Shown here: in pieces, positions 31,164 to 46,277 of the stretch
Position numbering within the stretch: the first letter of the stretch is position 1
Layout: each line of letters begins with the position of its first letter
NCBI GenBank assembly: GCA_964399035.1
Contig: CAYNPH010000097.1
Span: forward strand, 1,211-65,210
Reading direction: 5' to 3'
Source of the DNA: an uncultured Desulfurococcaceae archaeon
GTDB lineage: Archaea > Thermoproteota > Thermoprotei_A > Sulfolobales > NBVN01
DNA length: 64,000 nt
The notes under the pieces: model-generated
What the model was told of the DNA's origin: nothing
Database searches by the model: none
What the model saw: only the letters and a program-made list of their open reading frames with translations
Made by a program: the position numbers and the translations under genes

Positions 31164-32563
31164 GGAGGCTCTTCGGGACAGCCGGTATTAGGGGCAGGTA
31201 CTTGGAAGAGGTCTCACCCCACCTAGCGGTCGAGGTGGGGATGGCGCTAACAACGTACGTGAAGGCATCTAAGGTAGTTATAGGCGGGGATGGTAGGCTA
31301 ACAACGCCTGTTCTCAAGCTAGCCGCGGCGGTAGGCGCTATGACTGTGGGGGCCAACGCGATCGATGTGGGGCTAGTTCCCCTCCCGACCCTAGCATGGT
31401 CCGTGAGGAGATACGGGGGCGACGGAGGCATATACATCACGGCATCGCATAACCCACCAACGGACAACGGCATAAAAGTATTCACCGCTGAGGGGATGGA
31501 GTTCCCCGAGAGGGATGAGAGGGAGCTAGAGAGGATAATCCACGAGAAGTCGTGGAGGCTCGCCGACTGGGACTCCGTAGGTAAGTATGAGGCAAGGCTA
31601 GGTGCGTTGGAGGACTACATAGAAGAAGTGAGTTCTAGGGTGATGCCAACCACGATTAAGAGAAAACCCAAGGTACTCATAGACACCGCCAACGGCGCCC
31701 CCTCACTAGCCACACCCAACGTGCTAAGGAGTATAGGTGCGGACGTCGTGACGCTAAACGCTAATGTCGACGGGAGGTTCCCGGGCAGGACACCTGAGCC
31801 AAGACCCGACGTGCTAGAGCCCTTCCTCCCCGTTGCTAGGGACGTGGGCGCGCATGTTTTCCTTGCGCAGGACGGTGACGGGGATAGGTTAGCTGTCCTT
31901 GACCCGGCTAAGGGCTTCATAAAGCAGGACAGAATCATAGCGTTAATAGCTAAGAGGAAGCTCGAGGAGAAGAAAGGAACTATCGTTGTGTCCATAGATG
32001 TCGGCAACGCCGTAAGGGATGTAGTCGAGGAACTCGGCGGTAAGCTCTACGTCGTGAAGCTAGGGAAAACACATGAAGGCCTACTCAAGAACCCTGACAC
32101 GTTAATAGCTGCTGAGCCGTGGAAACTCATCGACCCGTCCTGGGGGTCATGGATCGACGGGATCTATCAAGCTGGATTAATAGTTAAGTGGATGGCTGAG
32201 GAAGGTAAGGACATAGGAGAGTTAATGAGTGAGGTGCCTAACTACCCTCAAGCTAGGTACTCACTTAAGATGCCTAAGCACGTGCGCGACCAGGTGTTCG
32301 AGGCCATGAAGGACGAACTAATGGGGATGGCTGGCGAGAACTCCGAAATAATAACGATTGATGGGTTAAGGGTGAACTTCCCGGACAGGTCCTGGCTACT
32401 CATAAGGAAGTCCGGGACAGAGCCCAAGATAAGGATCTACGGTGAGGCAGGGAGCCCACAAGCACTGAGAGACATGGTCAACAAACTCATCCATACCGCC
32501 ACATCAACGCTCAGGAAGTTAGGGGTAAGCGAAGTTAAGGTGGAAGGCAAGATAATACCATAA
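31160..32563 (+). CDS. Phosphohexomutase (phosphoglucosamine mutase / phosphomannomutase family)
   Basis: Active-site Ser loop ITASHNPPTDNGIKV, metal loop AQDGDGDRL, and C-terminal RKSGTEPKIRIY. Confidence 0.85.
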   Translation: MRRLFGTAGIRGRYLEEVSPHLAVEVGMALTTYVKASKVVIGGDGRLTTPVLKLAAAVGAMTVGANAIDVGLVPLPTLAWSVRRYGGDGGIYITASHNPPTDNGIKVFTAEGMEFPERDERELERIIHEKSWRLADWDSVGKYEARLGALEDYIEEVSSRVMPTTIKRKPKVLIDTANGAPSLATPNVLRSIGADVVTLNANVDGRFPGRTPEPRPDVLEPFLPVARDVGAHVFLAQDGDGDRLAVLDPAKGFIKQDRIIALIAKRKLEEKKGTIVVSIDVGNAVRDVVEELGGKLYVVKLGKTHEGLLKNPDTLIAAEPWKLIDPSWGSWIDGIYQAGLIVKWMAEEGKDIGELMSEVPNYPQARYSLKMPKHVRDQVFEAMKDELMGMAGENSEIITIDGLRVNFPDRSWLLIRKSGTEPKIRIYGEAGSPQALRDMVNKLIHTATSTLRKLGVSEVKVEGKIIP

Positions 32564-32637
32564 AACGAGGGAAAATCCGGGAAAACAAGCACGTGGTTTT
32601 ACACTTCTTAAAAACATGAGGGGTTCTGACCACCGCG

Positions 32638-33303
32638 TTAGAAGTTCTCGGCGGTGGCCTCTGATTCGCCACTCTTCGAAGCGGTCGGGACGGCGGGTAG
32701 GGCTGGGAAGGTCTCCTTCATGCGCTGCTCCGCTATCACCTTTGCCTCCTCTAGCACTTTCCTCGCATCCGGGCTCGTGTAGATTGGTGACGGGCCTATC
32801 CCTAGCATCTCACCCGCTTCCATCACGGTCTCCTGAAGTATGTCATGCACCTCACCAAGCTCAATACCTATCTCGGGGAGCACACCCCTTATCGCTGCCC
32901 TTATATCCTTAACCACCCCCACCACGGGGCCAAGCATAGCGGCAATGTCACCTATTTCTCTTATGGACTCAATCCTCAGGGATATCTGTTCGAGCGCCAC
33001 CTGCACCATCAGTAGGGACTTAGCCACCTTCCTTAACTCCGCCACCTCATTAGCGTACATGGACGCCCTAGCCATGTCCTTACTTATGAGGGCATCTACA
33101 ACCCTCTCAAACAGGTCCTTATCCCTAGCCTTAAGCCTCTCTAAGTACACCTCAAGCCTCCTAACCATCGAGTTAATCTTGTAATGAGCCATAGCTAGCC
33201 TCATCCTAAGGGGCTTCTCCTTCGTGAACGCGCTCTTAATCATCTGACCAACGGTTTTCTCCTTTCCCTTCCAGGCTTTCTCAAAGTCCTTAAAGCTGGA
33301 CAT
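32638..33303 (-). CDS. ESCRT-III/Snf7 (CdvB)-like coiled-coil protein, tentative
   Basis: About 220 aa, all-helical. A long helical hairpin (RMRLAMAHYKINSMVRRLEVYLERLKARDKDLFERVVDALISKDMARASMYANEVAELRKVAKSLLMVQVALEQISLRIES) is followed by a short helix (GDIAAMLGPVVGVVKDIRAAI) and an acidic tail, which parallels the CHMP/CdvB layout. Start taken at MSSFKDF. The ORF extends to 33333. Confidence 0.45.
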   Translation of the reverse strand: MSSFKDFEKAWKGKEKTVGQMIKSAFTKEKPLRMRLAMAHYKINSMVRRLEVYLERLKARDKDLFERVVDALISKDMARASMYANEVAELRKVAKSLLMVQVALEQISLRIESIREIGDIAAMLGPVVGVVKDIRAAIRGVLPEIGIELGEVHDILQETVMEAGEMLGIGPSPIYTSPDARKVLEEAKVIAEQRMKETFPALPAVPTASKSGESEATAENF

Positions 33304-33471
33304 AGGCTTACACACCGATAACAGACTCCCCACGCAGATTTACTTAAAAAGGAGGAACCCAAATCCTGTAGAGGCGCATACAGTATATCGATTAAACTCT
33401 ATAAAGGAATTTCTACGGGTATCTCACACGTAACAAATACGAATTAAGTAGTTGCACTAGACCATTCAGTC

Positions 33472-33501
33472 AATTTTTAATTTACTAACTAATAAAATAT
33501 A
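33472..33501 (+). promoter_or_regulatory. AT-rich BRE/TATA-like promoter region of the pilin gene
   Basis: AATTTTTAATTTACTAACTAATAAAATATA lies 18-47 nt upstream of the ATG, followed by GAGGTGA. Confidence 0.4.
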
Positions 33502-33518
33502 CGTGAGGTGAGCCACAA

Positions 33519-33941
33519 ATGAAGGCTCTAAGAAAAGGTATATCCCCAATAATCGCAACGGTCCTACTAATACTCATAGCGATAGCGACCGGCATAGTAA
33601 TCTACGCATTCGCAACAGGCTGGATAGGAGGACGACTAAACCAAGGCTCAGGACCCCAAGCAGTACTGGTAGTGGAGTCAGGGTTCTACAATAGTTCCAG
33701 CGGTAATTTCGTATTGTACGTCAGAAATGATGGTGGGGTAGTAGCCAACATAACTAGGGCATATGTTACTGCACCTAACGGTAGCGTGATTTTCATTAAC
33801 CTCGGTAAGGGATACACCGTAGATCCAGGTAGTGTAACCAAAGTACTTGTACCGTATCCCTCAGCAACTATTGGCTACGCTTACAAGATAACGCTAGTGT
33901 CAAGTGACGGTGCAGAAGTATCATACACAATAAGAGCCTAA
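33519..33941 (+). CDS. Archaeal type IV pilin-like protein (class III signal peptide)
   Basis: MKALRKG/ISPIIATVLLILIAIATGIVIYAF is the prepilin peptidase (PibD/FlaK-type) processing motif plus a hydrophobic N-terminal helix. The C-terminal part is beta-rich with N-x-S/T sites. Confidence 0.75.
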   Translation: MKALRKGISPIIATVLLILIAIATGIVIYAFATGWIGGRLNQGSGPQAVLVVESGFYNSSSGNFVLYVRNDGGVVANITRAYVTAPNGSVIFINLGKGYTVDPGSVTKVLVPYPSATIGYAYKITLVSSDGAEVSYTIRA

Positions 33942-33956
33942 CAGGGAACCAATTAA

Positions 33957-33969
33957 TTTTTGATCTTTT
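33957..33969 (+). terminator. Oligo-T tract after the pilin gene
   Basis: TTTTTGATCTTTT begins 16 nt after the stop codon. Confidence 0.4.
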
Positions 33970-34114
33970 AGGGAAAACCACAACATCACACAATTTCTCC
34001 CTTTCTGTTTTCCACTGTTTATCACGAAGCACATATGAGGAAGGATAAAATGTAAGTATGTGGAGGAAAGTAAATTTGTTGATGTAAAGTAATTAAATTA
34101 GGAATAAAGTAAAG

Positions 34115-35671
34115 GTGCTAGCTATGCCTAAGGACGAAGGAATAATTCACAATGATGCCAATCCCAGCGTCATTCTTTCTGAGAAGGATAGTGAGAACTT
34201 TGAACTTAAGGAGGAGACCATTGAGGAGTACGAACTGGACGAATATACTAAGGTACGTATTGTTAGGTCTCCTATGGCTACTTCTTTTGGTGGTTCGCTG
34301 CAGTACGTTGTTGATACTCCACAACCAAGTGATGCGGAGAGGGAAGTTCTTGATTTTGTTAGGCGCTGGTTTATTGAGGAGTACCCTAGGCCTGAGCTCG
34401 ACATCGATAAGATGTCAATAGTTATTGAGGAGGCCATAGAGAGGTTCGCCCCTAGGATCCTGAGGAAGAAGCTTAAGCTGAAGCGGAAGGAGAAGATAGA
34501 TGAGGCCGTAATTGACCGCATTAAGTACATGGCTAGAAGGGACATTGTAGGGTTCGGTAAGCTCGAGCCTATGCTTAAGGACCCGAACATTGAGGACATA
34601 CACGTCCTCGGTATCGGTAAGCCTGTATTCGTGTGGCATAGGACTTACGAGAACTTACCGACGAATGTCTTCTTTGTCGAGCCTGAAGACCTTGAACGTC
34701 ACCTGCAAAAGATGATGTTGACTACCGGTAAGTTCGTGAGCTTGAGTCGACCGATAGTTGACGGCACGCTACCTATGGGGTACAGGATTAACGTGGTTCA
34801 TTCCGTCGTTTCCGAGTTAGGCACCGCGATCACCATCAGGAAGTATAAGGAGATACCATTCACCGTGATCGACCTAGTTAGGTTCGGCACCTTAACGCCC
34901 GAGCTCGTCGGGTTCCTCTGGGTGGCTATGGAGAATAAGCGCTCCGTGTTCATTGTCGGTGAGACTGCCGCTGGTAAGACCACCCTGCTAAACGCCGTGG
35001 CGACCCTAATACCACTCAATATGAAGGTAGTCGTCATTGAGGAGGTTAGGGAAATTAGGTTGCCCCACCCTAACTCAGTATTCATGGTTACTAGGGAAGG
35101 CGTTGAGACCCTCGGTAAGGTAACGCTCTATGACCTAGTTAAGACTTCACTCAGGCAGAGACCTGACTACATAATCGTCGGTGAGGTTAGGGGTGAGGAG
35201 GCGTACGTGCTCCTCCAGGCTATTTCCCTAGGTCATGGTGGCTTAGGCACGATGCATGCTGAGGGTGTTGAGGCCGCTGTTAGGAGGTTAATGGCTCCGC
35301 CCATGAATATTCCTCCATACCTGATGCAGTTACTTGACGTCATAGTTCACGTGTCTAAGGTGAGGATAGGGAGGAGGATAAACAGGTACGTGCTAACGGC
35401 TGCCGAGATCTCCCACATAGACCCTGAGACTAAGGAACCCGAGCTTAACGTGATATATAAGGTGTCCGTGGACGAGCGAGAGGGCGCTAGGTTAGAGAGG
35501 TTCGCGCCTGAAGCCTCGATAACGTTGAGGAAAATCAGTGAGATACGTGGTTTAAGCATAGATACCCTCATAAGTAAGGTGTACCGTAGGGCGGACTTCA
35601 TTCGAAGGTTAGCACTGGAGAACCCGCCATACGAGGAGGCGATACTCAGGCTAACTAACTACAGGGATTGA
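34115..35671 (+). CDS. Type II/IV secretion family ATPase (FlaI/ArlI / PilB / VirB11-like)
   Basis: Walker A GETAAGKTTLLNA, Asp box/Walker B DYIIVGEVRGEEA, His box GHGGLGTMHA. The likely start is ATG at 34124. Confidence 0.85.
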   Translation: MLAMPKDEGIIHNDANPSVILSEKDSENFELKEETIEEYELDEYTKVRIVRSPMATSFGGSLQYVVDTPQPSDAEREVLDFVRRWFIEEYPRPELDIDKMSIVIEEAIERFAPRILRKKLKLKRKEKIDEAVIDRIKYMARRDIVGFGKLEPMLKDPNIEDIHVLGIGKPVFVWHRTYENLPTNVFFVEPEDLERHLQKMMLTTGKFVSLSRPIVDGTLPMGYRINVVHSVVSELGTAITIRKYKEIPFTVIDLVRFGTLTPELVGFLWVAMENKRSVFIVGETAAGKTTLLNAVATLIPLNMKVVVIEEVREIRLPHPNSVFMVTREGVETLGKVTLYDLVKTSLRQRPDYIIVGEVRGEEAYVLLQAISLGHGGLGTMHAEGVEAAVRRLMAPPMNIPPYLMQLLDVIVHVSKVRIGRRINRYVLTAAEISHIDPETKEPELNVIYKVSVDEREGARLERFAPEASITLRKISEIRGLSIDTLISKVYRRADFIRRLALENPPYEEAILRLTNYRD

Positions 35672-35672
35672 G

Positions 35673-36431
35673 GTGAGCTTAGGGGTGCTTAACACTCTCT
35701 ACATCGGTAAGTCCAAGAGGGTTCACTACGCTGTTTCAGCCGTGCCGGCCGCCTTAGGAGCCGTGATTGCCGTCTTATCGTACCTTCAGTTCCTGCCCCT
35801 GAGCTTAATACTTGCAGTCATTTACACATTGATAATGGTTTCCATATCAGCATCCATAGCTTTCCTGCCTAAGTTCAAGGTAAGCTCAATGCTTGAGCAC
35901 CTAGAGCTTAGGCTACCTCACCTTATACTGAGGCTGAGGACGCTCATAATGGCTGGTGAGTCCCCTCTCGAAGCCTTTCTCTCGGCCGCTAGTGAAGTTC
36001 GATCCCCCATCCTTGATTACTTAATAAAGCAGATAGCGTTAGGGGTAACCCCTGAGGAAGCCATTAGTGAGTTGCAGAGAGCCCTTAAGAATAAGCCCGT
36101 GCTTGACACGCTTAAACGCATAGTGCTTTCTCTCGGGATGGGCGAGGAGGCGATAAACTACCTTAAGGAGGAGTTCGACGCGATAATGGCTGAGAGGGAG
36201 TCAGGGCTTAGGAAGGCTATAGAGAGTCTATCAGTGATTGTCGAGATGTACATGTCGATAGGCGTGTTCTTCCCGGTCATAGCGATAGTGATGCTGGCGT
36301 CACTCTCAATACTCGGTAGTGGGTTCGACATCAACGCGTTAATAGCCCTCCTAATATTCGTGGCGATACCCCTATTCTCGGCGTTCTCCGCAATCATGGC
36401 TAAGAAGATCGTTGAGAGGGCATTACTATGA
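35673..36431 (+). CDS. Type IV filament platform protein, N-terminal half-gene (single T2SSF-like domain, TadB/FlaJ-like)
   Basis: 252 aa. TM helices flank a cytoplasmic helical domain with LRLRTLIMAGESPLEAFLSAA (T2SSF-type aG.s..eA motif). Starts 1 nt after the ATPase stop. Confidence 0.6.
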   Translation: MSLGVLNTLYIGKSKRVHYAVSAVPAALGAVIAVLSYLQFLPLSLILAVIYTLIMVSISASIAFLPKFKVSSMLEHLELRLPHLILRLRTLIMAGESPLEAFLSAASEVRSPILDYLIKQIALGVTPEEAISELQRALKNKPVLDTLKRIVLSLGMGEEAINYLKEEFDAIMAERESGLRKAIESLSVIVEMYMSIGVFFPVIAIVMLASLSILGSGFDINALIALLIFVAIPLFSAFSAIMAKKIVERALL

Positions 36432-37294
36432 GGCGAAAAATCAACGCCAGCATAAGCAGGAAGGACCTCCGGATCCTGCTCCTCACGCTCCCTGCTTGGG
36501 CCGCGGTGCTCTATGCCGTATACTTAATAGTTATAACGAAGAAAGGATTCAGCCTCTACGACCCCTACGAGGCCTTAGGTATTTCCTTCATAATAGCTGT
36601 CTCACTGATACCGTCGGCACTCTTTGAGTATAAGTGGGAGTGGGAAACGTCTAGGGCGGAGGCTGAAATACCCTTGATACTGTCAGCGCTGGAGAGCGGT
36701 TTGAGGGCGGGTCTTAGCTTACCTGAAGCACTCAGGGAATCACTGAAGTACTCTAAGTACTTAAGGCGTGATCTTGTGAGGGTGCTTAATGCCTTAGCTG
36801 CTGGCGAGAGCATAGATTCGGCCATAAGGTACTTGAGGAGGGAGACGCCGCTCCTAGCCATAACAGCTGATTACTTGAAGGTCCTTGCTAAGGGTGGTGA
36901 AGAGCTATTCCGGACGCTTAAGGACTTTCGAGAGTCTGTTGAAGTGATAGTTGGGTACACGGGTAAGCTCAAGGAAGCCACTCGATCTTTCCTAGCCACG
37001 GTGTACATGGTGCTCATAGTTTACTTAATAACGACAGCAATCTTCCTTCAGACATTCCTATATCCGCTGGCCAAGGAATCAGAGAAGTTAACGATGCTCG
37101 GGAGGATAGATCCCTTAGCGCTCACGTCACTCATAATTTATGGGGCCCTAATAGAGTCGATACTGAACGGCATAACGACATCCTACTTCACGGGCTCCAG
37201 GTACCTCTCATCACTCTTCCACGCCTTAATCCTTCTTTTCCTCTCGATAATGGTGTACACGGTGCTCCTCTTTACCCAAGTGCCGCCAGCGTAA
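36428..37294 (+). CDS. Type IV filament platform protein, C-terminal half-gene (single T2SSF-like domain, TadC/FlaJ-like)
   Basis: 288 aa. LILSALESGLRAGLSLPEALRESL (T2SSF-type motif) plus C-terminal TM helices. ATGA overlap with the preceding half-gene. Confidence 0.6.
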   Translation: MRRKINASISRKDLRILLLTLPAWAAVLYAVYLIVITKKGFSLYDPYEALGISFIIAVSLIPSALFEYKWEWETSRAEAEIPLILSALESGLRAGLSLPEALRESLKYSKYLRRDLVRVLNALAAGESIDSAIRYLRRETPLLAITADYLKVLAKGGEELFRTLKDFRESVEVIVGYTGKLKEATRSFLATVYMVLIVYLITTAIFLQTFLYPLAKESEKLTMLGRIDPLALTSLIIYGALIESILNGITTSYFTGSRYLSSLFHALILLFLSIMVYTVLLFTQVPPA

Positions 37295-37471
37295 GTATGT
37301 TTAGTGGCGTCGTTCCCTAGCGAGGCTACCTTAACATCCCGCTTCTTGGGGTAAATTTTTATCATTATTTGTATGTATTTTACATTGGATGGTAATGTAG
37401 TAATGATTTGGGTGAGGAGGCTCTCCACTAGTGGTACTAGTGGCAACGGAGATCAAAAAGGGGAGGCACCC

Positions 37472-37855
37472 ATGCCGAAGCCAGAGACCTTGCAGGAGAT
37501 AGAGGAAGTAATCAACAGGATAATAACCCTGCTCGCGGGCTCCAAGAAAGCTAAGAGTACGTCCATAAAGTATCAGTACGTTACTGGTTCTAGGATGTCT
37601 GAACTCTTTATAGAGAATCCCGACGAATTCAGGGAGATACTCTACATGGATTACGGGCAATTAAGCGATGAAATCATTGCAAGGATCGTGGAGGCTCTAG
37701 CGGAAATCGTGCAGAGCGAGGAGAAACCTCCTTCAATGGACTCAGAGGAGTTTAAGGAGTACGTAGCCAAGCTAGCAATGAAATTAGAGAACCGTCTAGA
37801 GAGCACAACATTTAACATAACCAGTAAGCAGGGTAGCAACAAGGAGCATAAGTGA
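37472..37855 (+). CDS. Hypothetical acidic helical protein (127 aa) in the type IV filament cluster
   Basis: ATG at 37472 is preceded by GGGGAGG and an AT-rich promoter-like stretch (37350-37380). The 160-aa ORF-track version probably starts too early. No TM segment and no known motif. Confidence 0.45.
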   Translation: MPKPETLQEIEEVINRIITLLAGSKKAKSTSIKYQYVTGSRMSELFIENPDEFREILYMDYGQLSDEIIARIVEALAEIVQSEEKPPSMDSEEFKEYVAKLAMKLENRLESTTFNITSKQGSNKEHK

Positions 37856-37949
37856 AGGAAATCTAGAGTACCACTAAACCACGCGGCATTCACGGAACAT
37901 GAGGGATACGGGGGGTTAAAAAGGGCGTGATGTAAAACCCTCTCCTAAG

Positions 37950-37976
37950 TTGCGATTTATTTAATTAACGTCGCAA
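37950..37976. promoter_or_regulatory. Inverted repeat TTGCGA-N15-TCGCAA enclosing a TATA-like TTTATTTAATTAA upstream of the KaiC-like gene
   Basis: 6-bp arms at 37950-37955 and 37971-37976. The AT-rich core lies about 45 nt upstream of the ATG at 38008. GGGGTGAT lies just before the ATG. Confidence 0.4.
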
Positions 37977-38007
37977 GTAAGCCTATAGTTAGGCACGGGG
38001 TGATCGC

Positions 38008-39378
38008 ATGAATGACGTGTGTCCCACAGGGATTAGCGGACTCGATGAGTTTCTTAATGGTGGCATACCGAGAGGTAGCATAGTACTTGTTGCCGGTACG
38101 CCAGGGGCTGGCAAGACCACGATGGCTGCTAGGTTCATCTACGAGGGTTTAAGGCACGGGGAACCAGGTGTTTACTTATCGTTCCTTGAATCTAAGGCGG
38201 ACTTCCTTAAGTTCATGAAGCTCTTGGGCATGGATTTTGAGCCGTACCTGAGGAACGGCATGTTTCAGTATATTGAGGGACTTCAATCCACTACTTTCGA
38301 AACGGCTAGAGAAAACCTCATAGAGTTCCTTGACGCCGTGGCTAGGATAGGTGCCAAGCGCGTCGTCATAGACTCGATAACCGCGATAACGCAGATGACT
38401 ACTTTAAGGGGGGCTAGGGAGTTAATCAAGAACGCCTTAGTTCTTGGGCTGAGGCCCTACGAGGTTACGGGCCTCATCGTGGCCGAATTACCGATAGGAT
38501 ATGAAATCGTAGGGTATGGTCTCGAGGAATTCATTTTCGACGGCGTCATAATACTTAAGTCAGAATTTAGGAACGGCATTCTACGCAGGACGCTTCAAGT
38601 AAGGAAAATGCGCGGAACCGTAGTGCCTGAGGTAGAGCTTCATTACGACATAGTGACTGGGGACGGCATACGTGTTTACGCGCCAGTAAGGATTGAGGAG
38701 GTGGGGAAACCTAAGAAGGTTGAGACGATAACCCCTTTAGAACCCATTGACCGCGTGTTTCGTAACTTACGCAGGGGTTCACAGGTGCTCTTGATAGTTG
38801 ATAAGTACGTACCTTCCCTCGCTGTGGGCATCCTCGCAGGTTTAGCGTTCGCCTACTCCAGCGGAGGCAAGCTACTTATAAGGTCATTCAGTAAGCCACC
38901 AGACATCGTTAAACATGTCATAGATTTAATAAGCAACGCCTTCCCGGGGAAGGCTAGGGCCCCGGCCGAGATAATTATTGAGTGCTTGAACCCGACGCAG
39001 GAGCCCTTGTACAGGTTAGCTCATAGGGCAAGGGATAATGAGTTAAGGGTTAGGCCGGACTACCTAGTCATAGATCCGGTGAGTCATATACTCAAGCTTT
39101 CAGGGAGCATCCATGAGTTCTATAGGGACCACATAAATAACATACTAATGCGCAGGAAACTAGGCATAACCACGTTCTATTCCTACGCGGACGCTGAGGT
39201 TAAGGGTCTTGAACTGCCGGTGGAGCTATATGACGTCGTCGTAAGGATAAAGCGTAAGTGGGGTAGGGTCGGGAGATGCTACAGCGTAGAGGTGTACGGC
39301 ATATTGAAACCCGTTCCTCCAGGCCCCCTGACGTTCTGCGTGGATCCCGAGTGGAGGTTAGTGGTTGCGGAGGAGTGA
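38008..39378 (+). CDS. KaiC/RecA-superfamily ATPase (FlaH/ArlH-like N-terminal domain) with a degenerate second KaiC-like domain
   Basis: N-terminal GISGLDEFLNGGIPRGSIVLVAGTPGAGKTTMAARFIYEGL (KaiC-type Walker A) and Walker B-like RVVIDSI. The C-terminal half repeats the layout (LRRGSQVLLIVDKYVPSLAVGILAGLAFAYS) without a P-loop. Confidence 0.75.
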   Translation: MNDVCPTGISGLDEFLNGGIPRGSIVLVAGTPGAGKTTMAARFIYEGLRHGEPGVYLSFLESKADFLKFMKLLGMDFEPYLRNGMFQYIEGLQSTTFETARENLIEFLDAVARIGAKRVVIDSITAITQMTTLRGARELIKNALVLGLRPYEVTGLIVAELPIGYEIVGYGLEEFIFDGVIILKSEFRNGILRRTLQVRKMRGTVVPEVELHYDIVTGDGIRVYAPVRIEEVGKPKKVETITPLEPIDRVFRNLRRGSQVLLIVDKYVPSLAVGILAGLAFAYSSGGKLLIRSFSKPPDIVKHVIDLISNAFPGKARAPAEIIIECLNPTQEPLYRLAHRARDNELRVRPDYLVIDPVSHILKLSGSIHEFYRDHINNILMRRKLGITTFYSYADAEVKGLELPVELYDVVVRIKRKWGRVGRCYSVEVYGILKPVPPGPLTFCVDPEWRLVVAEE

Positions 39379-39760
39379 TATTGTGAGGTCCAGCAACGTT
39401 GACAGTAAGACTGAAGCGATGGTTGCTAGGTACCTAGCCAGCTTAGTTAATGAGAGGTTAAGGAAGCACGTACCAGGCCTTCAACTGTCGCTGAACATGT
39501 TCATGTACAGCATGTACGGCAGGTACCCGGGCGAGCTTATCTATAGTGACCCTAGAGCATTCATGACTGCCCTCAGGAAGTACTTCCGTGACCCAGACGT
39601 AGCCATTAGGTTGGTTAAGTATATACTCAAGCCACTGGAGGACTGCGGTGAGGAAGGTAGGGAAGCCCTACGTGCTTTACTTGATGGTAGGTGGGATGAC
39701 TTTAAGCGCTTAGCCACGCTTGCCCTAAGGAACAAGGCTAAGAAATGGGCTAGGACGTGA
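39365..39760 (+). CDS. Hypothetical protein (about 126-131 aa), last gene of the type IV filament cluster
   Basis: Overlaps or abuts the KaiC-like gene stop. GTG at 39383 is an alternative start. Helical and basic, with no known motif. Confidence 0.45.
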   Translation: MRRSDIVRSSNVDSKTEAMVARYLASLVNERLRKHVPGLQLSLNMFMYSMYGRYPGELIYSDPRAFMTALRKYFRDPDVAIRLVKYILKPLEDCGEEGREALRALLDGRWDDFKRLATLALRNKAKKWART

Positions 39761-39895
39761 TTATCTACGTGCACCCATTTCTTTCCTCATCACTATCACT
39801 TCTTACGTTAGGTACGGGTAGCAAATGATGCAATACCTAAACAGCATGACTTACGTTATTAAAGCCACATTACCCTTACTTAACGGTGCTACCAA

Positions 39896-40894
39896 ATGAG
39901 TATGGAGCGTTTTAAGGGGTTCTACCTTGACTGGCGTTCACTAGCTGAGAGAACCCTAAGCACTCAGGTCGAGAATCCTGGAGGGAGGGAGAGGTACGGC
40001 GGTATCGCGTTAACGGGGATGGGTGGTTCAGGCATTATAGGGGACATTATACATGTGCTGGCGTTCGAGTTAAGCGACGTACCGACGGTCGTTATTAAGG
40101 ATTTCAGCCTACCTAAGTACGTTAAGGACGACTGGTTAGTCTTAGCAATAAGCTATTCCGGAAACACCAAGGAAACGCTAAGCACCGTTCACGAGGCCTT
40201 GAGCAGGGGCTGTGACGTCGCCGGGGTGTCCTCTGGAGGTAAGCTTGCGGAGATAGCTAGGGAGAAGGGATTAACGTACCTTCAGGTGGAGAGCGGAAGG
40301 GTGCCACGTGCTTCTATGCCTGCGTTACTTATAGGCGCGTTAAAGGTATTGAGGGTAAAGGGCATGGACTTCCCGCTACCCTCCCCGGAAGGGATCGCTA
40401 AGCTAGGTGATGTAGATGAGGCTGAATCCTTAGCGGAGTACCTCGTTGAGGGGCTTACTGGGAGGATCCCTGTGTTCCTGAGTGATGTGAGGCACTACCC
40501 CCTCGCGATCAGGGCTAAGAACGAGTTCAATGAGAACGCGAAGATACCGGCGAAGGTTGAGGTGCTGCCGGAGTGGGGTCATAATGACATCGTTGGGTGG
40601 GAGAAGTGGTTGGGGCCCTTTACAGCCATAGTACTTGAGCTTGGTGAGGGGGACAAACTCTTGAAGTTTGCAGCCAATTACCTGCGGGAGGTTAATGTGC
40701 CTGTTAAGGAGTTAGTAATGTCTGACTCCATGCCCTACGTGGATAGGGTGCTATGGTACTCGCTAGTGCTGGGCTTAGCCTCGCTGAAGCTCGCCGAGGT
40801 TAGAGGGGTGGATCCCGGAGTAACTGAGTCGATATCAAAATATAAGACGTTCCTTAAGTCATGGAGCCCTAATCCGGAGGAAAGTTCAAGGTAA
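39896..40894 (+). CDS. Bifunctional phosphoglucose/phosphomannose isomerase (SIS domain, crenarchaeal PGI/PMI type)
   Basis: GMGGSGIIGD and ISYSGNTKETL SIS motifs. Its size of about 330 aa and overall layout match the Pyrobaculum/Aeropyrum-type PGI/PMI. Confidence 0.7.
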   Translation: MSMERFKGFYLDWRSLAERTLSTQVENPGGRERYGGIALTGMGGSGIIGDIIHVLAFELSDVPTVVIKDFSLPKYVKDDWLVLAISYSGNTKETLSTVHEALSRGCDVAGVSSGGKLAEIAREKGLTYLQVESGRVPRASMPALLIGALKVLRVKGMDFPLPSPEGIAKLGDVDEAESLAEYLVEGLTGRIPVFLSDVRHYPLAIRAKNEFNENAKIPAKVEVLPEWGHNDIVGWEKWLGPFTAIVLELGEGDKLLKFAANYLREVNVPVKELVMSDSMPYVDRVLWYSLVLGLASLKLAEVRGVDPGVTESISKYKTFLKSWSPNPEESSR

Positions 40895-40971
40895 AGCTAA
40901 ACACAGCTTTTAACCTAGGTTACGCTGAGTAATAAAAACCCTTCACACCAATTCATTCACGGTGTTTTAAC

Positions 40972-42243
40972 GTGGTTAAGACGTCGCGACTGCCTGGATT
41001 CCATAAGTTGACGCTTAAGGAAAGGTTAGCTAAGGTAGCTGAGCTTGCTGGCTTGAGCAAGGAGGATGTTAAAACATTAACAAAGGAGGGGCCACTACCC
41101 CTTGACTTAGCTGATAAGATGATCGAGAATGTAATAGGAACCATGCCACTACCTTTAGGCATAGCGACTAACTTCCTGATAAACGGTAAGGACTACCTAG
41201 TGCCCATGGCTATTGAGGAACCTTCGGTTGTTGCTGCCGCGTCTAACGCGGCGAAGATGTGTAGGGCTGGCGGAGGCATTAAGTCCTTAGCTACGGAGTC
41301 ATTAATGATCTCGCAGATACAACTAGTGAATGTACCCTCACCGCATACCGCGAAGTACGTCATACTTGAGCGTAAGAAGGAGATAATCGACCTAGCGAAC
41401 TCAACGAACCCAATACTCCTTAAGGTCGGTGGGGGAGTTAGGGACGTTGAGGTCAGAATCCTTAACTCGCCTGTGGGTCCAATGGTAGTGACTCACTTAA
41501 TTGTTGATGTGCGTGACGCGATGGGGGCAAACACCGTTAACACGATGGCTGAGGCCGTAGCTCCCTTGCTGGAGAAGTGGACTGGGGGGAAGGTGTACTT
41601 GAGGATAATCTCGAACCTAGCTGACAGGAGGTTAGTTAGGGCGTGGACTAGGGTGCCGAAGGACGTGCTTGGAGGTGAGGACGTAGTTGACGGCATCGTG
41701 TACGCTTGGGCTTTCGCGGCTGCCGACCCGTATAGGGCGGCGACGCACAATAAGGGGATAATGAACGGTGTGATAGCGGTAGCGTTAGCGACAGGGCAGG
41801 ATACTAGGGCGCTTGAGGCTGGAGCCCATGCCTACGCGGCGAGGAACGGTAAGTACGAGCCTCTAAGCGTGTGGGAGAAGGACAGGAACGGCGACTTAAT
41901 CGGTTACCTGGAAATGCCGATGGCTGTCGGTACAATAGGTGGCGCGGTCAGGGTTCACCCCGTAGCTAAGGTGGCGTTGAAGATACTCGGCATTAAGACG
42001 GCTAAGGAGTTGGCTGAGGTGATGGGTGCTGTCGGGCTAGCCCAGAACCTTGCTGCCCTCCGTGCATTAGCGACGGAGGGGATTCAGAAGGGCCACATGA
42101 AGCTACATGCCAGGCAACTGGCTATAACGGCTGGTGCGAAGGGTGACGAGGTTGACGAGGTTGTTAAGGAAATGCTTAAGCGCGGCGAAATACGGCTCGA
42201 TGTTGCTAAGGAGATACTGGAGGCTATTAGATCCAAGAGGTAA
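40972..42243 (+). CDS. hmgA: 3-hydroxy-3-methylglutaryl-CoA reductase, class II-like
   Basis: ENVIGTMPLPLGIATNFLINGKDYLVPMAIEEPSVVAAASNAAKM and VDVRDAMGANTVNTMAEAVAP closely parallel the class II (Pseudomonas mevalonii-type) enzyme motifs. Confidence 0.85.
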   Translation: MVKTSRLPGFHKLTLKERLAKVAELAGLSKEDVKTLTKEGPLPLDLADKMIENVIGTMPLPLGIATNFLINGKDYLVPMAIEEPSVVAAASNAAKMCRAGGGIKSLATESLMISQIQLVNVPSPHTAKYVILERKKEIIDLANSTNPILLKVGGGVRDVEVRILNSPVGPMVVTHLIVDVRDAMGANTVNTMAEAVAPLLEKWTGGKVYLRIISNLADRRLVRAWTRVPKDVLGGEDVVDGIVYAWAFAAADPYRAATHNKGIMNGVIAVALATGQDTRALEAGAHAYAARNGKYEPLSVWEKDRNGDLIGYLEMPMAVGTIGGAVRVHPVAKVALKILGIKTAKELAEVMGAVGLAQNLAALRALATEGIQKGHMKLHARQLAITAGAKGDEVDEVVKEMLKRGEIRLDVAKEILEAIRSKR

Positions 42244-43200: not shown

Positions 43201-44430
43201 GTGACATTAATGAAGGCTAAAATATTAGTGAAGGTCCCTACGCCCGCGGTGCTTACTGTCCTGCTGGCGCTCCTTACAGTTTCCCCGTTGCTAGGAGCGC
43301 AAACACTAGCAACTGGAACTTACGTCTATGCCTTAGGAACTGACGGTAGCGCCGACGTAAATATTATAGTAAGTAACGTGACCGGTCAAGCAATAATTTA
43401 CGTGAAGGTGGATCCGGGCATACTACCGGAATCCTTAGTAGCGGTGGATGAGAAAGGCAATATCGTACCTACGAGCATCATAGGCTCAACAGTGGTGCAG
43501 GCAATACCGGCTAATCAGTCGACACAACTGTTCATAAGGTACGAAGCAATCGTAGGCGAGTCCTCCGGTGGCATGGTGAAGGACATCATATCTCCTGGAG
43601 GTCCGGCAACCATCAGACTACCAGCTGGGGCTGCTCTCCTATACTTCAATGGAACTCCTTCATCCATCAAAATGATCGGCAATCAAATCGTAATTGAGTA
43701 CTCAAGCGCAGGCACCTATGAGATAGAGTTCACTTTACCACCACCGACAACGTCAACGACCTCCGCAACAACCACAGCAACACCAGCAACGACTACTACT
43801 ACCACAACTTCGTCCACTGTAAGCACCACTACGCAAACAACATCGACAAGACCAACAAGCACGACTACCTCCACAGCAGTAACAACCACGAGCACATCAC
43901 GACCAGCAACGAGCACCACCATACAAACAACAGTACCCAGCACAACCTCAAGCATCATAACACAGTCAACTTCAACTACAGGTGCGGCGACCAAAACCTC
44001 AACCACGTCTAGCACAACGCGAAGCACACAGGCAAGTTCAAGCACCACCGCAACTAAACCCATGTCAGGTCAGAGCAACATGACGTGGGTGTACGCGTTA
44101 GTAGCGGCAGTAATCGTCATAGTCATCATTGCGGCCGCTGCTTTGAGATCCCGTAGGACGCCCCGTGGCGGGAGCCCGGCTACGGGCGTGGGTGAGTTAA
44201 TCCGTGCTGAGGAACTTGACGAACGCGACTACGAGATCCTGAAGGCGCTGAAGGAGGGCACGGAGACTATATCCTCGCTTGCGAGGAAATTAGGGCTGAG
44301 CAAGTCCGTCGTGTGGAGGAGGGTTCAGAAACTACTGAGGTTAGGGCTGATAAGTAAGGAGGATAAGGGAGGGAGAACCTACCTCAGCATAACTGAGGAA
44401 GGATTAAGGAAATTAGGTGAGCAAGCATGA
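43201..44430 (+). CDS. Membrane-anchored winged-helix transcriptional regulator with an extracellular domain and Thr/Ser-rich stalk
   Basis: Signal peptide, a beta-rich ectodomain of about 150 aa with 3 N-x-S/T sites, and a Thr/Ser stalk of about 107 aa. A TM helix follows (WVYALVAAVIVIVIIAAAAL), then a cytoplasmic wHTH (DYEILKALKEGTETISSLARKLGLSKSVVWRRVQKLLRLGLISKEDKGGRTYLSITEEG). Confidence 0.65.
   Translation: MTLMKAKILVKVPTPAVLTVLLALLTVSPLLGAQTLATGTYVYALGTDGSADVNIIVSNVTGQAIIYVKVDPGILPESLVAVDEKGNIVPTSIIGSTVVQAIPANQSTQLFIRYEAIVGESSGGMVKDIISPGGPATIRLPAGAALLYFNGTPSSIKMIGNQIVIEYSSAGTYEIEFTLPPPTTSTTSATTTATPATTTTTTTSSTVSTTTQTTSTRPTSTTTSTAVTTTSTSRPATSTTIQTTVPSTTSSIITQSTSTTGAATKTSTTSSTTRSTQASSSTTATKPMSGQSNMTWVYALVAAVIVIVIIAAAALRSRRTPRGGSPATGVGELIRAEELDERDYEILKALKEGTETISSLARKLGLSKSVVWRRVQKLLRLGLISKEDKGGRTYLSITEEGLRKLGEQA
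43738..44060 (+). repeat. Low-complexity Thr/Ser/Pro-coding tract (ACN/TCN codon runs) inside the CDS
   Basis: Encodes PPPTTSTTSATTTATPATTTTTTTSSTVSTTTQTTSTRPTSTTTSTAVTTTSTS... Likely an O-glycosylated stalk. Confidence 0.8.
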
Positions 44431-44434
44431 GGAG

Positions 44435-44496
44435 ACGTTCTGTTCCGAACCCCGTGGAACGCGGAACGTTCCTTAGGGGGTTTTTAATATCGAACC
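44435..44496. promoter_or_regulatory. Cluster of GAAC/GTTC half-sites, including the perfect palindrome GGAACGTTCC, plus a TATA-like TTTTTAATAT
   Basis: ACGTTC (44435-40), GTTCCGAAC (44442-50), GGAAC (44456-60), GGAACGTTCC (44463-72), TTTTTAATAT (44481-90), CGAACC (44491-96). GGAGGTG lies 9 nt before the ATG at 44529. Confidence 0.45.
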
Positions 44497-44528
44497 ACTC
44501 CGCAAGGTTTCACGGAGGTGTGCAGGAC

Positions 44529-46277
44529 ATGACGTCAAGCCTCAGGAAAACCGTACCCGTAATATGGGCCCTGATAGTGGCGCTAGGCGTGTTAAGCCCC
44601 GCAAGCACCACGTTAGGAGCCCTAGCCCAAGACAGTTCGACCTCAACCACCGTGACACTAAATGCGAACGTTAACGTCTCGGTAGTGATGATAAGATCAC
44701 TTAACATTTCAATACAGGTAGCGATTAGCAAACTAACGAGCTTCAACGTAAGTAAGAACAGCACTGAGTGGCAGCTGGTGAGGGAGGCAAACCAATCACT
44801 AAAACTCGCGCTTCAAGCAAACATGACCGGTAACTACAGCGCTGCCGTGAAGTACGCGCAGGAGGGTCTAGCGAAGATCAGAAAGGCCCTAGAACTACTG
44901 TCGCAGGAGTACAGCGTAAAGGCCAACGAGAGTATCATAGAAGCGATAAGGTATGAGGGTAAAGTAAGGGCCCTCAATAGGACAGCGCACGTGCTACTGA
45001 ACGCAACCATAAGGGCTGAGGAAAAAGGCACCATCAACGTAACGGTTGCTGAGAAACTCAAGGCAACTCTCCAGAATGACATTAGGGCTCTCAGCGAGCT
45101 AGCTAAGTACCTGGCTAAGGTAGTGAATAGGTCTGAAACACTTAACGCGACCTACGTAGCCGATGTGCTGGAGAAGGTGGCAAAGGATCTAGCGAGCGTG
45201 CGTGAGACTCTCAACAACTGCGCTGCTAGGAGACTTCAGGAAATGGTGAGGATTAGGGTAATGGAGCAACTTAAGGCGATGTGGGAGGAGGTTAAGAAGA
45301 TAACTCAGGTCGCGCAGGAGGCTCAGGAGCAGAACTTAACGGTGATGGCGCAGGAGTTAATGAAGATCGCACAGAACCTAACGCAGAAGCTGATGAAGAT
45401 CGAGAAGGAAGTAATGAATGCCACTACGCCCATGAACATCTCTGAAGTAGAGAAGCTACTAAACATGACCAACCAAGTGAAGGTGCTGGTAAGTATGTCA
45501 CACGAAGTTAAGTGCTGTGGCAAGCATGCAATCGACTTAAGGGCCGTAATGAGCGACTTAGCGAAGTTGAAGATGACTATAATGCAAGTAAACATGACGT
45601 ACATGGAACTTAAGTTCATGACCAAAGGCATGAGCAGCGATATAATTAAGGAAGTCAATGACGTGGGTAAGCTTATGAAGGCACTGCAGGGCAACTACAG
45701 CGAGCTGGAAAAGGCGCTTGCGAACGGCGATGCAGAGAAAGTTAGGGAATGCCTAAACGCTATTAATGCAACAGCAACCCAGCTCAGTAACATGGTAAGT
45801 AAAATGATGCAGGAAAAGATGAGCGGACCTACCGCAAATCAAGTAAGGGTTATGCTGAGGAAAATGGATGACGATCTCAAGGCAGTAATGGAGCAGGTTA
45901 GGGAGAGGCTCCACTCAATGGAGAAAGTGGCTCAGCAGGCTCAGGCAAGTAAATCCGCGACCATCGAAGCCGAGCTGAAGACCGCCGTGAAGCAATTGGA
46001 GAGGGCGTTGACCATAGGTAAGGCAAGTAAGGCGCTGACGCCAACCCAGATAAGTAAGATCCAGAACGTTCAAGCAAGCCTAAGCAAAGTAATGACCCTC
46101 CTAAAGAACGGTAACACAGAGGAAGCATCGAAGATAATCAAGACAAGCATTGAGGTACTGAAGGAAGTACAACATGAGGTAAGCGTGAAGGCCGGCAAAG
46201 GCGGTGCAGTAGTCAGCACGGAGATTGAGGTAGTTATCGAGATACTCCATACTGTGCAGGCCATGATTGAACACTGA
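44529..46277 (+). CDS. Secreted Met-rich alpha-helical coiled-coil glycoprotein (hypothetical)
   Basis: Signal peptide MTSSLRKTVPVIWALIVALGVLSPASTTLGALAQ, then about 550 aa of heptad-like helical sequence. I count 21 N-x-S/T sequons by eye. No C-terminal TM segment. An alternative upstream ATG at 44427 overlaps the previous stop. Confidence 0.6.
   Translation: MTSSLRKTVPVIWALIVALGVLSPASTTLGALAQDSSTSTTVTLNANVNVSVVMIRSLNISIQVAISKLTSFNVSKNSTEWQLVREANQSLKLALQANMTGNYSAAVKYAQEGLAKIRKALELLSQEYSVKANESIIEAIRYEGKVRALNRTAHVLLNATIRAEEKGTINVTVAEKLKATLQNDIRALSELAKYLAKVVNRSETLNATYVADVLEKVAKDLASVRETLNNCAARRLQEMVRIRVMEQLKAMWEEVKKITQVAQEAQEQNLTVMAQELMKIAQNLTQKLMKIEKEVMNATTPMNISEVEKLLNMTNQVKVLVSMSHEVKCCGKHAIDLRAVMSDLAKLKMTIMQVNMTYMELKFMTKGMSSDIIKEVNDVGKLMKALQGNYSELEKALANGDAEKVRECLNAINATATQLSNMVSKMMQEKMSGPTANQVRVMLRKMDDDLKAVMEQVRERLHSMEKVAQQAQASKSATIEAELKTAVKQLERALTIGKASKALTPTQISKIQNVQASLSKVMTLLKNGNTEEASKIIKTSIEVLKEVQHEVSVKAGKGGAVVSTEIEVVIEILHTVQAMIEH

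Follow-up and report, generated by a model that had tools for sequence, protein, structure and literature searches.

A type IV pilus locus linked to a two-domain KaiC-like ATPase in an uncultured member of the Desulfurococcales

The gene cluster at positions 33519-39760 of the window (the whole 64-kb stretch of DNA that was analysed) belongs to an uncultured member of the Desulfurococcales and consists of two linked modules, a type IV pilus (T4P) at 33519-37294 and a KaiC-family signalling unit at 37373-39760. It is best read as encoding an adhesive-type pilus with a KaiC-based regulatory switch, a reading to which we attach a probability of about 0.6. The locus is an example, in an uncultured lineage, of a pilus class delineated by comparative genomics in 2016 and not a new machine. 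An earlier note on this DNA had placed seven open reading frames (ORFs) here, and the window sequence reads accordingly, with seven ORFs on the + strand filling the region. That note had called the cluster a type IV filament locus, which is borne out by the class III pilin, the T2SSE ATPase and the T2SSF platform. Its further suggestion of a distinct non-canonical machine did not survive, as the architecture has already been described in silico as T4P subclade 4B and nothing in the locus points to motility. The profile searches which it had proposed were run on all seven products and confirmed the pilin, T2SSE, T2SSF and KaiC assignments, with Pilin_N below its cutoff.

The module at 33519-37294 is most likely a minimal crenarchaeal type IV pilus, predicted to be an adhesive surface filament. 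What characterizes an archaeal T4P (TACK clade 4 in the sense of PMC4858521) was found in it: a class III prepilin, a T2SSE ATPase with its motifs and a TadC/T2SSF platform. The first gene (33519..33941, + strand) codes for the major pilin of 140 amino acid residues, which begins with a class III signal peptide and ends in a beta-rich domain of the PilA/UpsA type. The N-terminus MKALRKG/ISPIIATVLLILIAIATG was confirmed; it reads MKALRKG|ISPII and continues as a hydrophobic helix. The protein passes the archaellin/type IV pilin N-terminal model TIGR02537 (29.9 bits, cutoff 20), and Pfam Pilin_N gives 20.9 bits, below 25.2. The UpsA model aligns it from end to end (residues 5-136) with 41.1 bits and E 1.8e-10, below the cutoff of 130. 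Pilin orthologues stand first in every related T4P locus. Besides this pilin no other convincing class III signal protein was found in the window, so that the pilin count is one, while two are present in each of the related loci L011, L021, L023, L025 and L026.

The pilin gene is preceded by an AT-rich promoter-like region with TATA-like boxes and a Shine-Dalgarno-like motif GAGGTGA (33470..33505, + strand), as read from the sequence, and the 70 nucleotides 5' of the gene are 69% A+T. It is followed by an oligo-T run (33957..33961, + strand), the likely archaeal terminator of a monocistronic pilin transcript. Three T5 runs occur between 33300 and 40000, and this is the sole one behind a gene of the cluster. 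All three features described earlier for this gene, the signal peptide, the AT-rich upstream box and the oligo-T run, are present. A phmmer search of the 64-kb window with the A24 protein of L021 as the query found no prepilin peptidase (PibD, Peptidase_A24) homologue. The gene for this enzyme is usually unlinked, and its absence near the locus is no argument against function. In L021 a Peptidase_A24 (prepilin peptidase) gene is located 2.2 kb downstream of the pilus operon (L021:13257-13997).

The second gene (34115..35671, + strand) codes for a pilus assembly ATPase of 518 residues, or 515 if the alternative start ATG at 34124 is used. It belongs to the T2SSE/VirB11 superfamily and has a Walker A motif, a Walker B motif and a His box. 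The motifs GETAAGKTT, DYIIVGEVRGEEA and GHGGLGTMHA, which the earlier note had listed, can be read in the sequence. Pfam T2SSE scores 101 bits (cutoff 24.9). The best-scoring NCBIfam model is the ArlI equivalog NF058587 with 334.8 bits, below its cutoff of 550; the protein also fails BasE (176 bits against 1000) and TadA TIGR03819 (191.7 against 373). The best matches in the PDB are Archaeoglobus afGspE (2OAP, 266 bits), S. acidocaldarius FlaI (221 bits) and CpaF (156 bits). The core is 36.5% identical to S. acidocaldarius FlaI, which falls outside the 21-leaf clade that contains the window ATPase. This clade was obtained from a neighbour-joining tree without bootstrap, in which three reference sequences were rebuilt from printed alignments. 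The tree shows separation from FlaI and not a position among the published T4P subclades. Thus, of the ATPase phylogeny proposed before, a clade apart from FlaI could be recovered, whereas the position among the published subclades is outside the reach of a tree with three references. Two orthologues of the ATPase gene (L004:3222-5723 and L014:710-3295) carry a 378-residue intein in the Walker A P-loop (GETAAGK | SF...HN | T), inserted after the position of window residue 288. Inteins are also present in several further ATPase clusters of the clade (P0151-P0159, P0162); the window gene has none.

The platform is encoded by two genes, each with one T2SSF domain of the TadC/ArlJ-like type. The N-terminal half (35673..36431, + strand, 252 residues) scores 29.4 bits on T2SSF and starts 1 nt after the ATPase stop. 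The C-terminal half (36428..37294, + strand, 288 residues) scores 31.7 bits and overlaps the first half by 4 nt. Both are above the Pfam T2SSF cutoff of 25.2. The first matches ArlJ model positions 17-235 of 555 and the second ArlJ model positions 354-455 of 465. Since the two genes match N- and C-terminal ArlJ parts, respectively, together they represent one split platform. The TadC protein of crenarchaeal clade-4 T4P systems is encoded by one or two genes, and the two-gene form is common (PMC4858521); it is also present in Pyrolobus fumarii (L020). A bacterial Tad origin of the split platform was considered and rejected, as the halves are the N- and C-parts of ArlJ, the ATPase is closer to archaeal ATPases, and the platform of Pyrolobus is split too. 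The interpretation of the two-gene platform as a bacterial Tad-like oddity has therefore been abandoned. The same applies to the archaellum-like FlaI/FlaJ/FlaH triad that was to accompany it: the ATPase reaches 335 of 550 bits for ArlI, the KaiC-like protein 64.7 of 215 for ArlH, and there are no Arl accessories. With an ATPase other than ArlI, a KaiC-like protein other than ArlH and a split platform of a kind that is common in Crenarchaeota, the reading as a hybrid of archaellum and Tad fails.

The central protein of the signalling unit (38008..39378, + strand) is a two-domain KaiC-like ATPase of 456 residues, as judged from Pfam KaiC, an AlphaFold2 (AF2) model and Foldseek. Pfam KaiC matches residues 5-226 only, with 195.9 bits. 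The AF2 model was built from an alignment (A1) with 16 full-length relatives and has a predicted local distance difference test score (pLDDT) of 84 and a predicted template modelling score (pTM) of 0.73. Compared by Foldseek with structures of two-domain KaiC (PDB codes 8ZN5, 1TF7 and 7S65), it gives template modelling (TM) scores of 0.76-0.78 over approximately 470 columns, with E-values down to 3e-35. The N-terminal domain (residues 1-226) is intact and contains the Walker A motif GTPGAGKTT, Glu61, Asp122 and the segment RKMRG. At the P-loop position of the C-terminal domain (approximately residues 245-456) the sequence reads DKYVPSLA. In alignment A1 the C-domain Walker A motif (GxxGxGKT) is missing in 16 of 16 family members, and the Walker-B-like Asp356 is invariant. 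Because the model superposes on two-domain cyanobacterial KaiC, the second domain is assigned a KaiC/RecA-like fold, in which the P-loop has been lost; the profile of this domain alone gives weak matches to RadA and KaiC-CII (E 0.06-0.15). The double length of the protein, noticed earlier, corresponds to this double-domain fold in the model and in Foldseek. The ArlH model NF052589 scores 64.7 bits (cutoff 215), with generic KaiC models scoring higher, and the KaiC equivalog NF006799 scores 136 bits (cutoff 408). The identity of a clock-type KaiC was rejected in view of the equivalog score, the absence of the second-domain P-loop and the lack of a KaiB/KaiA partner, since no KaiB or KaiA family match was found by Pfam and NCBIfam among the neighbour genes.

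The KaiC-like gene is accompanied by two small genes, orf1 and orf2, whose products are soluble proteins with no membrane anchor. The description of both as orphans agrees with the searches, which gave no Pfam or NCBIfam match above threshold. The product of orf2 (39365..39760, + strand; the start may be 39383) is a basic, all-alpha protein of 125-131 residues with an isoelectric point (pI) of approximately 10, and its gene is translationally coupled to the KaiC-like gene. Its AF2 model (pLDDT 89) has 8 helices. The best PDB match in Foldseek is PH0832 (2P9X), with probability 1.00, E 0.03, a target-normalised TM score of 0.68 and 24% identity over 98 columns; the remaining matches have a probability of 0.3 or less. 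The family profile also finds PH0832 (2P9X) as its top PDB match (E 0.085), with the common motif PGL...EL..DP..F. PH0832 is a member of PF11537 (NitrOD5, formerly DUF3227), on which it scores 84.8 bits. On the same model orf2 itself scores 12.7 bits (E 0.15) and the L021 homologue 20.1 bits, the gathering cutoff being 27, and sub-threshold matches occur in 4 of 10 members of the orf2 family. By modelled fold and profile, orf2 is a remote relative of DUF3227/NitrOD5, a family described as archaeal Death-domain-like (as cited in PMC5847659). The orf2 family is tiny: a word-indexed search gave 6 close homologues and an exhaustive profile search 9 representatives among 1.84 billion. As the exhaustive search found only these 9, the sequence of orf2 alone provides no bridge to Thermoproteales.

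The product of orf1 (37373..37855, + strand) is a cytoplasmic protein of 127-160 residues, starts being possible at 37373, 37403 or 37472. It has a pI of about 5, in line with the acidic protein that had been noticed at 37472-37855. For orf1 no Pfam, NCBIfam or PDB match was obtained, and none to PF11537. The orf1 and orf2 families align by hhalign with a probability of 83% and E 8.8e-6 over 65 columns with the common motif EL..NP..F, and on this one hhalign result orf1 is probably a diverged paralogue of orf2. Homologues of orf1 are located upstream of the KaiC-like gene in loci both with and without T4P genes.

The genes are not evenly spaced. The ATPase and the two platform genes are coupled, with 1 nt between the first two and an overlap of 4 nt between the last two, and so are the KaiC-like gene and orf2, which overlap or lie 4 nt apart, depending on the start of orf2. 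There is a gap of 78-177 nt before orf1 and one of 152 nt before the KaiC-like gene, each with a TATA-like AT-rich box inside. The box of orf1 lies at approximately 37335-37360. That of the KaiC-like gene (37950..37970, + strand) reads TTTATTTAATTAA, some 40 nt 5' of the gene, and is followed by GGGGTGAT, a presumed Shine-Dalgarno-like motif. Because of these gaps with TATA-like boxes of their own, orf1 and the KaiC-like gene can be placed outside the ATPase operon. Four transcription units are predicted from the sequence: the pilin gene; the ATPase gene with TadC1 and TadC2; orf1; and the KaiC-like gene with orf2. The tightly coupled string of genes described in the earlier note is consequently correct for the ATPase, TadC1 and TadC2 and for the KaiC-like gene and orf2, but is interrupted by the gaps before orf1 and before the KaiC-like gene. 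A scan of 32500-41000 with Rfam gave no match.

Related loci were compared from the KaiC side and from the ATPase side. The window sequence itself is also present in a metagenome contig of 140 kb (L001), and all named relatives are metagenome-assembled genomes (MAGs) of uncultured Desulfurococcales or Desulfurococcaceae. Genomes were scanned with one peptide pattern, taken from the C-domain of the KaiC-like protein, by which absence from cultured genomes is not established. On the KaiC side, six loci besides the window (L003, L004, L008, L009 in part, L011 and L014) show the full order pilin(s)-ATPase-TadC1-TadC2-orf1-KaiC-like-orf2-PGI, where PGI is the phosphoglucose/phosphomannose isomerase gene. 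Four others (L006/L015, L012, L013 and L019) have an orf1-like gene, the KaiC-like gene, orf2 and PGI, and pilus genes are missing from the visible stretch, which extends only about 3 kb (L013) and 2.7 kb (L019) upstream of the KaiC-like gene in two of them. Pairs of KaiC-like and orf2-like genes occur in unrelated contexts in three further cases (L005/L016, L017 and L018), at least some of which are second copies in the MAG concerned. In almost all related loci orf2 adjoins the KaiC-like gene, on its downstream side except in L017, where an orf2-like ORF is found upstream. In L007 an IS607-type element (L007:1-1586) lies directly upstream of orf1, at the position of the window pilus genes. 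It consists of an HTH_17+Resolvase TnpA and an OrfB_IS605 TnpB-like ORF, seemingly interrupted; the KaiC-like protein of this locus is 88% identical.

On the ATPase side, all five loci sampled inside the 21-leaf clade (L021, L023, L024, L025 and L026; ATPases 45-63% identical to that of the window) have both a KaiC-like gene and a homologue of orf2 no more than 5 kb away. Their KaiC-like proteins are two-domain and without a P-loop in the C-domain. The pair is collinear with the pilus genes in three of these loci (L023, L024, L025) and divergent in the other two (L021, L026). Apart from this, the genes on the flanks are unrelated in L021, L025 and L026. These last three loci have two pilins and a protein of approximately 900 residues with a class III signal. 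Just outside the clade, the ATPases of Pyrolobus fumarii (L020) and L022 are found in the order TackOD1-ATPase-TadC-TadC, with no KaiC-like/orf2 pair. The linkage is therefore asymmetric: in the sample of five the ATPase clade always has the pair, while the pair also exists alone. The gene-order comparison thus upholds, for this ATPase clade, the expectation that the KaiC-like and orphan genes are conserved neighbours in related genomes.

Several details of these loci deserve to be recorded. L024 contains an extra two-domain KaiC-like gene (L024:11150-12499, 449 residues, second domain without a P-loop) between TadC2 and the orf1-like gene, so that two KaiC-like genes stand in tandem. In L023, orf2 is followed by a gene for an 824-residue protein (L023:13762-16236) with the class-III-like signal KFRRG|FSYLVVV, a weak PKD domain and a stretch rich in His and Cys (HGHKCGHKHKCCHHHCHCVC); the protein may serve as an adhesin associated with the pilus or bind metal at the cell surface. 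The genes directly before the ATPase-TadC-TadC series in L020:6967-11339 (Pyrolobus fumarii) and L022:6988-11369 code for TackOD1, with multiple CXXC motifs. TackOD1 was noted earlier in thaumarchaeal pilus loci (PMC5847659), and L020 is an instance in a cultured crenarchaeon.

From the domain identities, folds, gene coupling and conserved neighbourhood a mechanism can be proposed, in which the filament function, the physical interactions and the direction of regulation are conjectural. The PilA/UpsA-like prepilin, presumably made in large amounts from its own transcript, would be processed behind Gly7 by a prepilin peptidase whose gene lies elsewhere. Its polymerisation would be driven by a T2SSE ATPase hexamer seated on the platform, which the two half-size TadC proteins would form together. 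The signalling unit would comprise the two-domain KaiC-like ATPase, active in its first domain, with two small helical paralogues, one acidic and one basic. The KaiC-like hexamer could change its state through ATP binding, hydrolysis or autophosphorylation in the first domain, and the helical proteins of orf1 and orf2 could serve as state-dependent adaptors, in the place that KaiB has in other KaiC systems. The output of this switch would gate the pilus machine. By analogy with ArlH and ArlI, direct contact with the assembly ATPase or the platform can be put forward tentatively as the likeliest route. This protein-level route is favoured by the strict link to one ATPase clade and by the pair being embedded in the pilus locus L023, where a protein with a class III signal lies beyond orf2. 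Control of transcription, by analogy with CirA and the arl genes, is the alternative and only slightly less probable. It seems quite unlikely that the KaiC-like protein and its Death-like partners form a dedicated cytoplasmic component which docks on the pilus ATPase of this clade as a two-domain ArlH-like ring with adaptors. If this were true, the docking ring would be a nucleotide- or phosphorylation-gated switch for pilus assembly or retraction, and the ArlH of the archaellum could have arisen from a module of this kind.

Four observations weigh against a switch that belongs to this pilus. The gene for the KaiC-like protein and orf1 are separated from the ATPase operon by gaps with their own TATA-like boxes. 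The KaiC-like/orf2 pair occurs without a pilus gene within 8-10 kb, beside PGI (L006/L015, L012) and as second copies (L005/L016, L017, L018). Close relatives are syntenic as a whole block from CdvB to HMG-CoA reductase, so that much of the collinear conservation reflects shared ancestry. Finally, the membership of orf2 in its Pfam family is below threshold and orf1 has no direct match. A more general role, in signalling or in transcription, is favoured by the separate promoters, by the basic character of orf2 and by the existence of copies that stand alone. The cluster could also consist of two independent neighbouring systems, in which the KaiC-like protein, orf1 and orf2 are a general signalling hub with targets other than the pilus, and the proximity is inherited synteny. 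The separate promoter-like boxes and intergenic gaps, the second paralogous copies elsewhere in the same MAGs and the fact that about half of the KaiC-like family loci (L006/L015, L012, L013, L019, L005/L016, L017, L018) have no nearby T4P genes all agree with this; in four of these (L006/L015, L012, L013, L019) orf1, the KaiC-like gene and orf2 still lie beside PGI as in the window. However, the pair is kept in all five ATPase-side loci despite different flanks (L021, L025, L026) and orientation (L021, L026), a pilin-like gene is located beyond orf2 in L023, and the same linkage has been reported independently in Thermoproteales (PMC4858521). With a few KaiC-like genes in a genome of approximately 1,600 genes, the chance of adjacency can be roughly put at a few percent for each independent arrangement. 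Two independent systems are for these reasons considered unlikely.

A machine for motility was also considered, with an archaellum-like rotary or novel motor in which the KaiC-like protein acts as ArlH and orf1 and orf2 replace ArlX/ArlCDE. An ATPase, a platform and a KaiC-like ATPase are encoded together as in the archaellum core, of the NCBIfam models ArlI gives the ATPase its highest score (335 bits), and the accessory proteins orf1 and orf2 are uncharacterised. Nevertheless, the ATPase stays below the ArlI cutoff of 550, is closer to afGspE (266 bits) than to FlaI (221 bits, 36.5% identity) and lies in a clade without FlaI. The KaiC-like protein does not reach the ArlH cutoff (64.7 against 215), is made of two domains and would be transcribed separately. 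The sole filament subunit is UpsA/PilA-like, archaellin and ArlF/G are not present, and orf1 and orf2 are predicted to be soluble, helical, Death-like proteins with no membrane anchor. Hardly any weight is left for this explanation. It appears very unlikely, too, that the filament is an Ups-like pilus for stress-induced aggregation and DNA exchange rather than for surface adhesion, with the KaiC-like module as a stress sensor. The best named match of the pilin is indeed the UpsA equivalog over the full length (41 bits, E 1.8e-10), and KaiC-like ATPases have been proposed as archaeal signalling hubs (PMC5847659). But the UpsA score is far below the cutoff of 130 and may merely mirror the generic PilA-family fold, UpsF gives 12 bits against 400, neither a second pilin (UpsB) nor UpsX is present, and no Ced-type DNA import gene was matched among the part of the window ORFs that was scanned. 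An adhesive-type pilus with a KaiC-based switch remains the preferred reading of the cluster.

To our knowledge, no KaiC-like ATPase linked to an archaeal pilus, as distinct from an archaellum, has been studied experimentally, and we know of few partners of the archaeal KaiC "signalling hubs". The present locus and its relatives form a compact and clearly bounded test case, in which a single pilin, a single ATPase and a single KaiC-like protein go with a split platform and two small partner proteins. The prediction that the Death-like proteins bind the KaiC-like hexamer, and that the complex controls the pilus, can be checked. What is added here is evidence, at the level of the fold, for a true double domain in the KaiC-like protein, the second domain being dead, the modelled relation of orf2 to DUF3227, the probable paralogy of orf1 and orf2, and the asymmetric linkage of the ATPase clade and the KaiC pair. 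The value of the locus is as material for a question that has already been posed, and because the lineage is uncultured, testing would require heterologous proteins.

The cluster is bordered on the left by a CdvB1/B2 gene on the minus strand (32638-33333; NF041005 281 bits, below the cutoff of 350) and on the right by the PGI gene (39896-40894). The CdvB1/B2-type ESCRT-III paralogue and the pilin gene diverge from an intergenic region of 185 bp (33334-33518), and this divergent pairing is also kept in L003, L004, L008, L011, L023 and L024. Farther downstream, window positions 43201-46277 encode a 409-residue protein with a C-terminal winged-helix domain and then, overlapping it, a 616-residue ORF without a Pfam match. 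The pair is kept in L001 and L003, where the second protein has a weak ATG17_like match. Just upstream of phosphoglycerate kinase there is a 397-residue ORF (window 57552-58745) with no Pfam family at E<=0.001.

The locus can be compared with several known systems. With the archaellum core ArlI/ArlJ/ArlH it shares the combination of genes for a secretion-type ATPase, a polytopic platform and an ATPase of the KaiC family. However, the window proteins failed the equivalog tests for ArlI, ArlJ and ArlH, and the KaiC-like protein is two-domain, in contrast to the single-domain ArlH, and is encoded outside the ATPase operon. No family match to archaellin or ArlF/G/X/CDE was found by Pfam and NCBIfam among the seven products or the flanking genes, and the earlier statement that genes of the FlaF/FlaG/FlaX/FlaCDE type are not recognisable in the locus holds. 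In the archaellum, autophosphorylation of the KaiC-like ArlH controls its binding to ArlI (bioRxiv 10.1101/2021.03.19.436134); this binding offers the closest model for a possible action of the window protein. CirA of Haloferax volcanii is encoded by a KaiC-like gene beside the arl cluster and represses arl transcription (PMC10983859). The likeness consists in a separately transcribed KaiC-like gene beside a type IV filament cluster (divergent, as in L021 and L026); the difference, in a comparison by description and not by sequence, is that CirA is euryarchaeal, acts on the archaellum and has no reported Death-like partner. With cyanobacterial KaiC the window protein shares the double RecA-like domain fold and the intact first-domain ATPase site, but its second domain has no Walker A motif, and helical Death-like proteins are found in place of KaiA/KaiB. 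In orf2 the fold and the PGL...EL..DP..F motif are those of PH0832/PF11537, whereas the protein is longer, with 8 helices, a basic C-terminal helix and a score below the Pfam gathering value.

Among pili, the bacterial Tad system (TadA/CpaF, TadB, TadC) resembles the window in having two platform proteins with a single T2SSF domain encoded after the ATPase. However, the window ATPase scores lower on TadA/CpaF than on archaeal ATPases, the pilin is archaeal and the halves correspond to one ArlJ/TadC. The Aap and Ups pili of Sulfolobales share with the present one the TACK-type T4P plan, in which a class III pilin is combined with a T2SSE ATPase and a platform of the TadC kind, and the window pilin is UpsA-like over its full length. 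They differ in that the window proteins are far from reaching the cutoffs for UpsA and UpsF, that the window platform is split and that a KaiC-like module is attached to the locus; the Aap and Ups loci are described as simply organised, and the main text of PMC4858521 mentions no KaiC-like module for them. The closest counterpart is subclade 4B of Thermoproteales (Makarova, Koonin & Albers 2016, PMC4858521), known in silico only. Its loci combine an ATPase gene with two TadC-like genes and two genes for PilA pilins, to which a gene for a large protein with a signal peptide is sometimes added. Its KaiC-like ATPase is paired with a small alpha-helical Death-like protein, for which a role in pilus regulation in place of KaiB was proposed (PMC4858521). 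The window differs in belonging to Desulfurococcales, in having one pilin, no large adhesin and no S-layer-like protein, and in the extra putative Death-like paralogue orf1. As far as can be read from the sequence the locus matches the 4B architecture, the placement of its ATPase in the 4B tree and the membership in arCOG01174/arCOG03758 being unproven. The window has the ATPase, the two TadC genes, a PilA-family pilin and the pair of KaiC-like and predicted Death-like (orf2) proteins, and the related loci L021, L025 and L026 also have the two pilins and the large signal-peptide protein of the 4B description.

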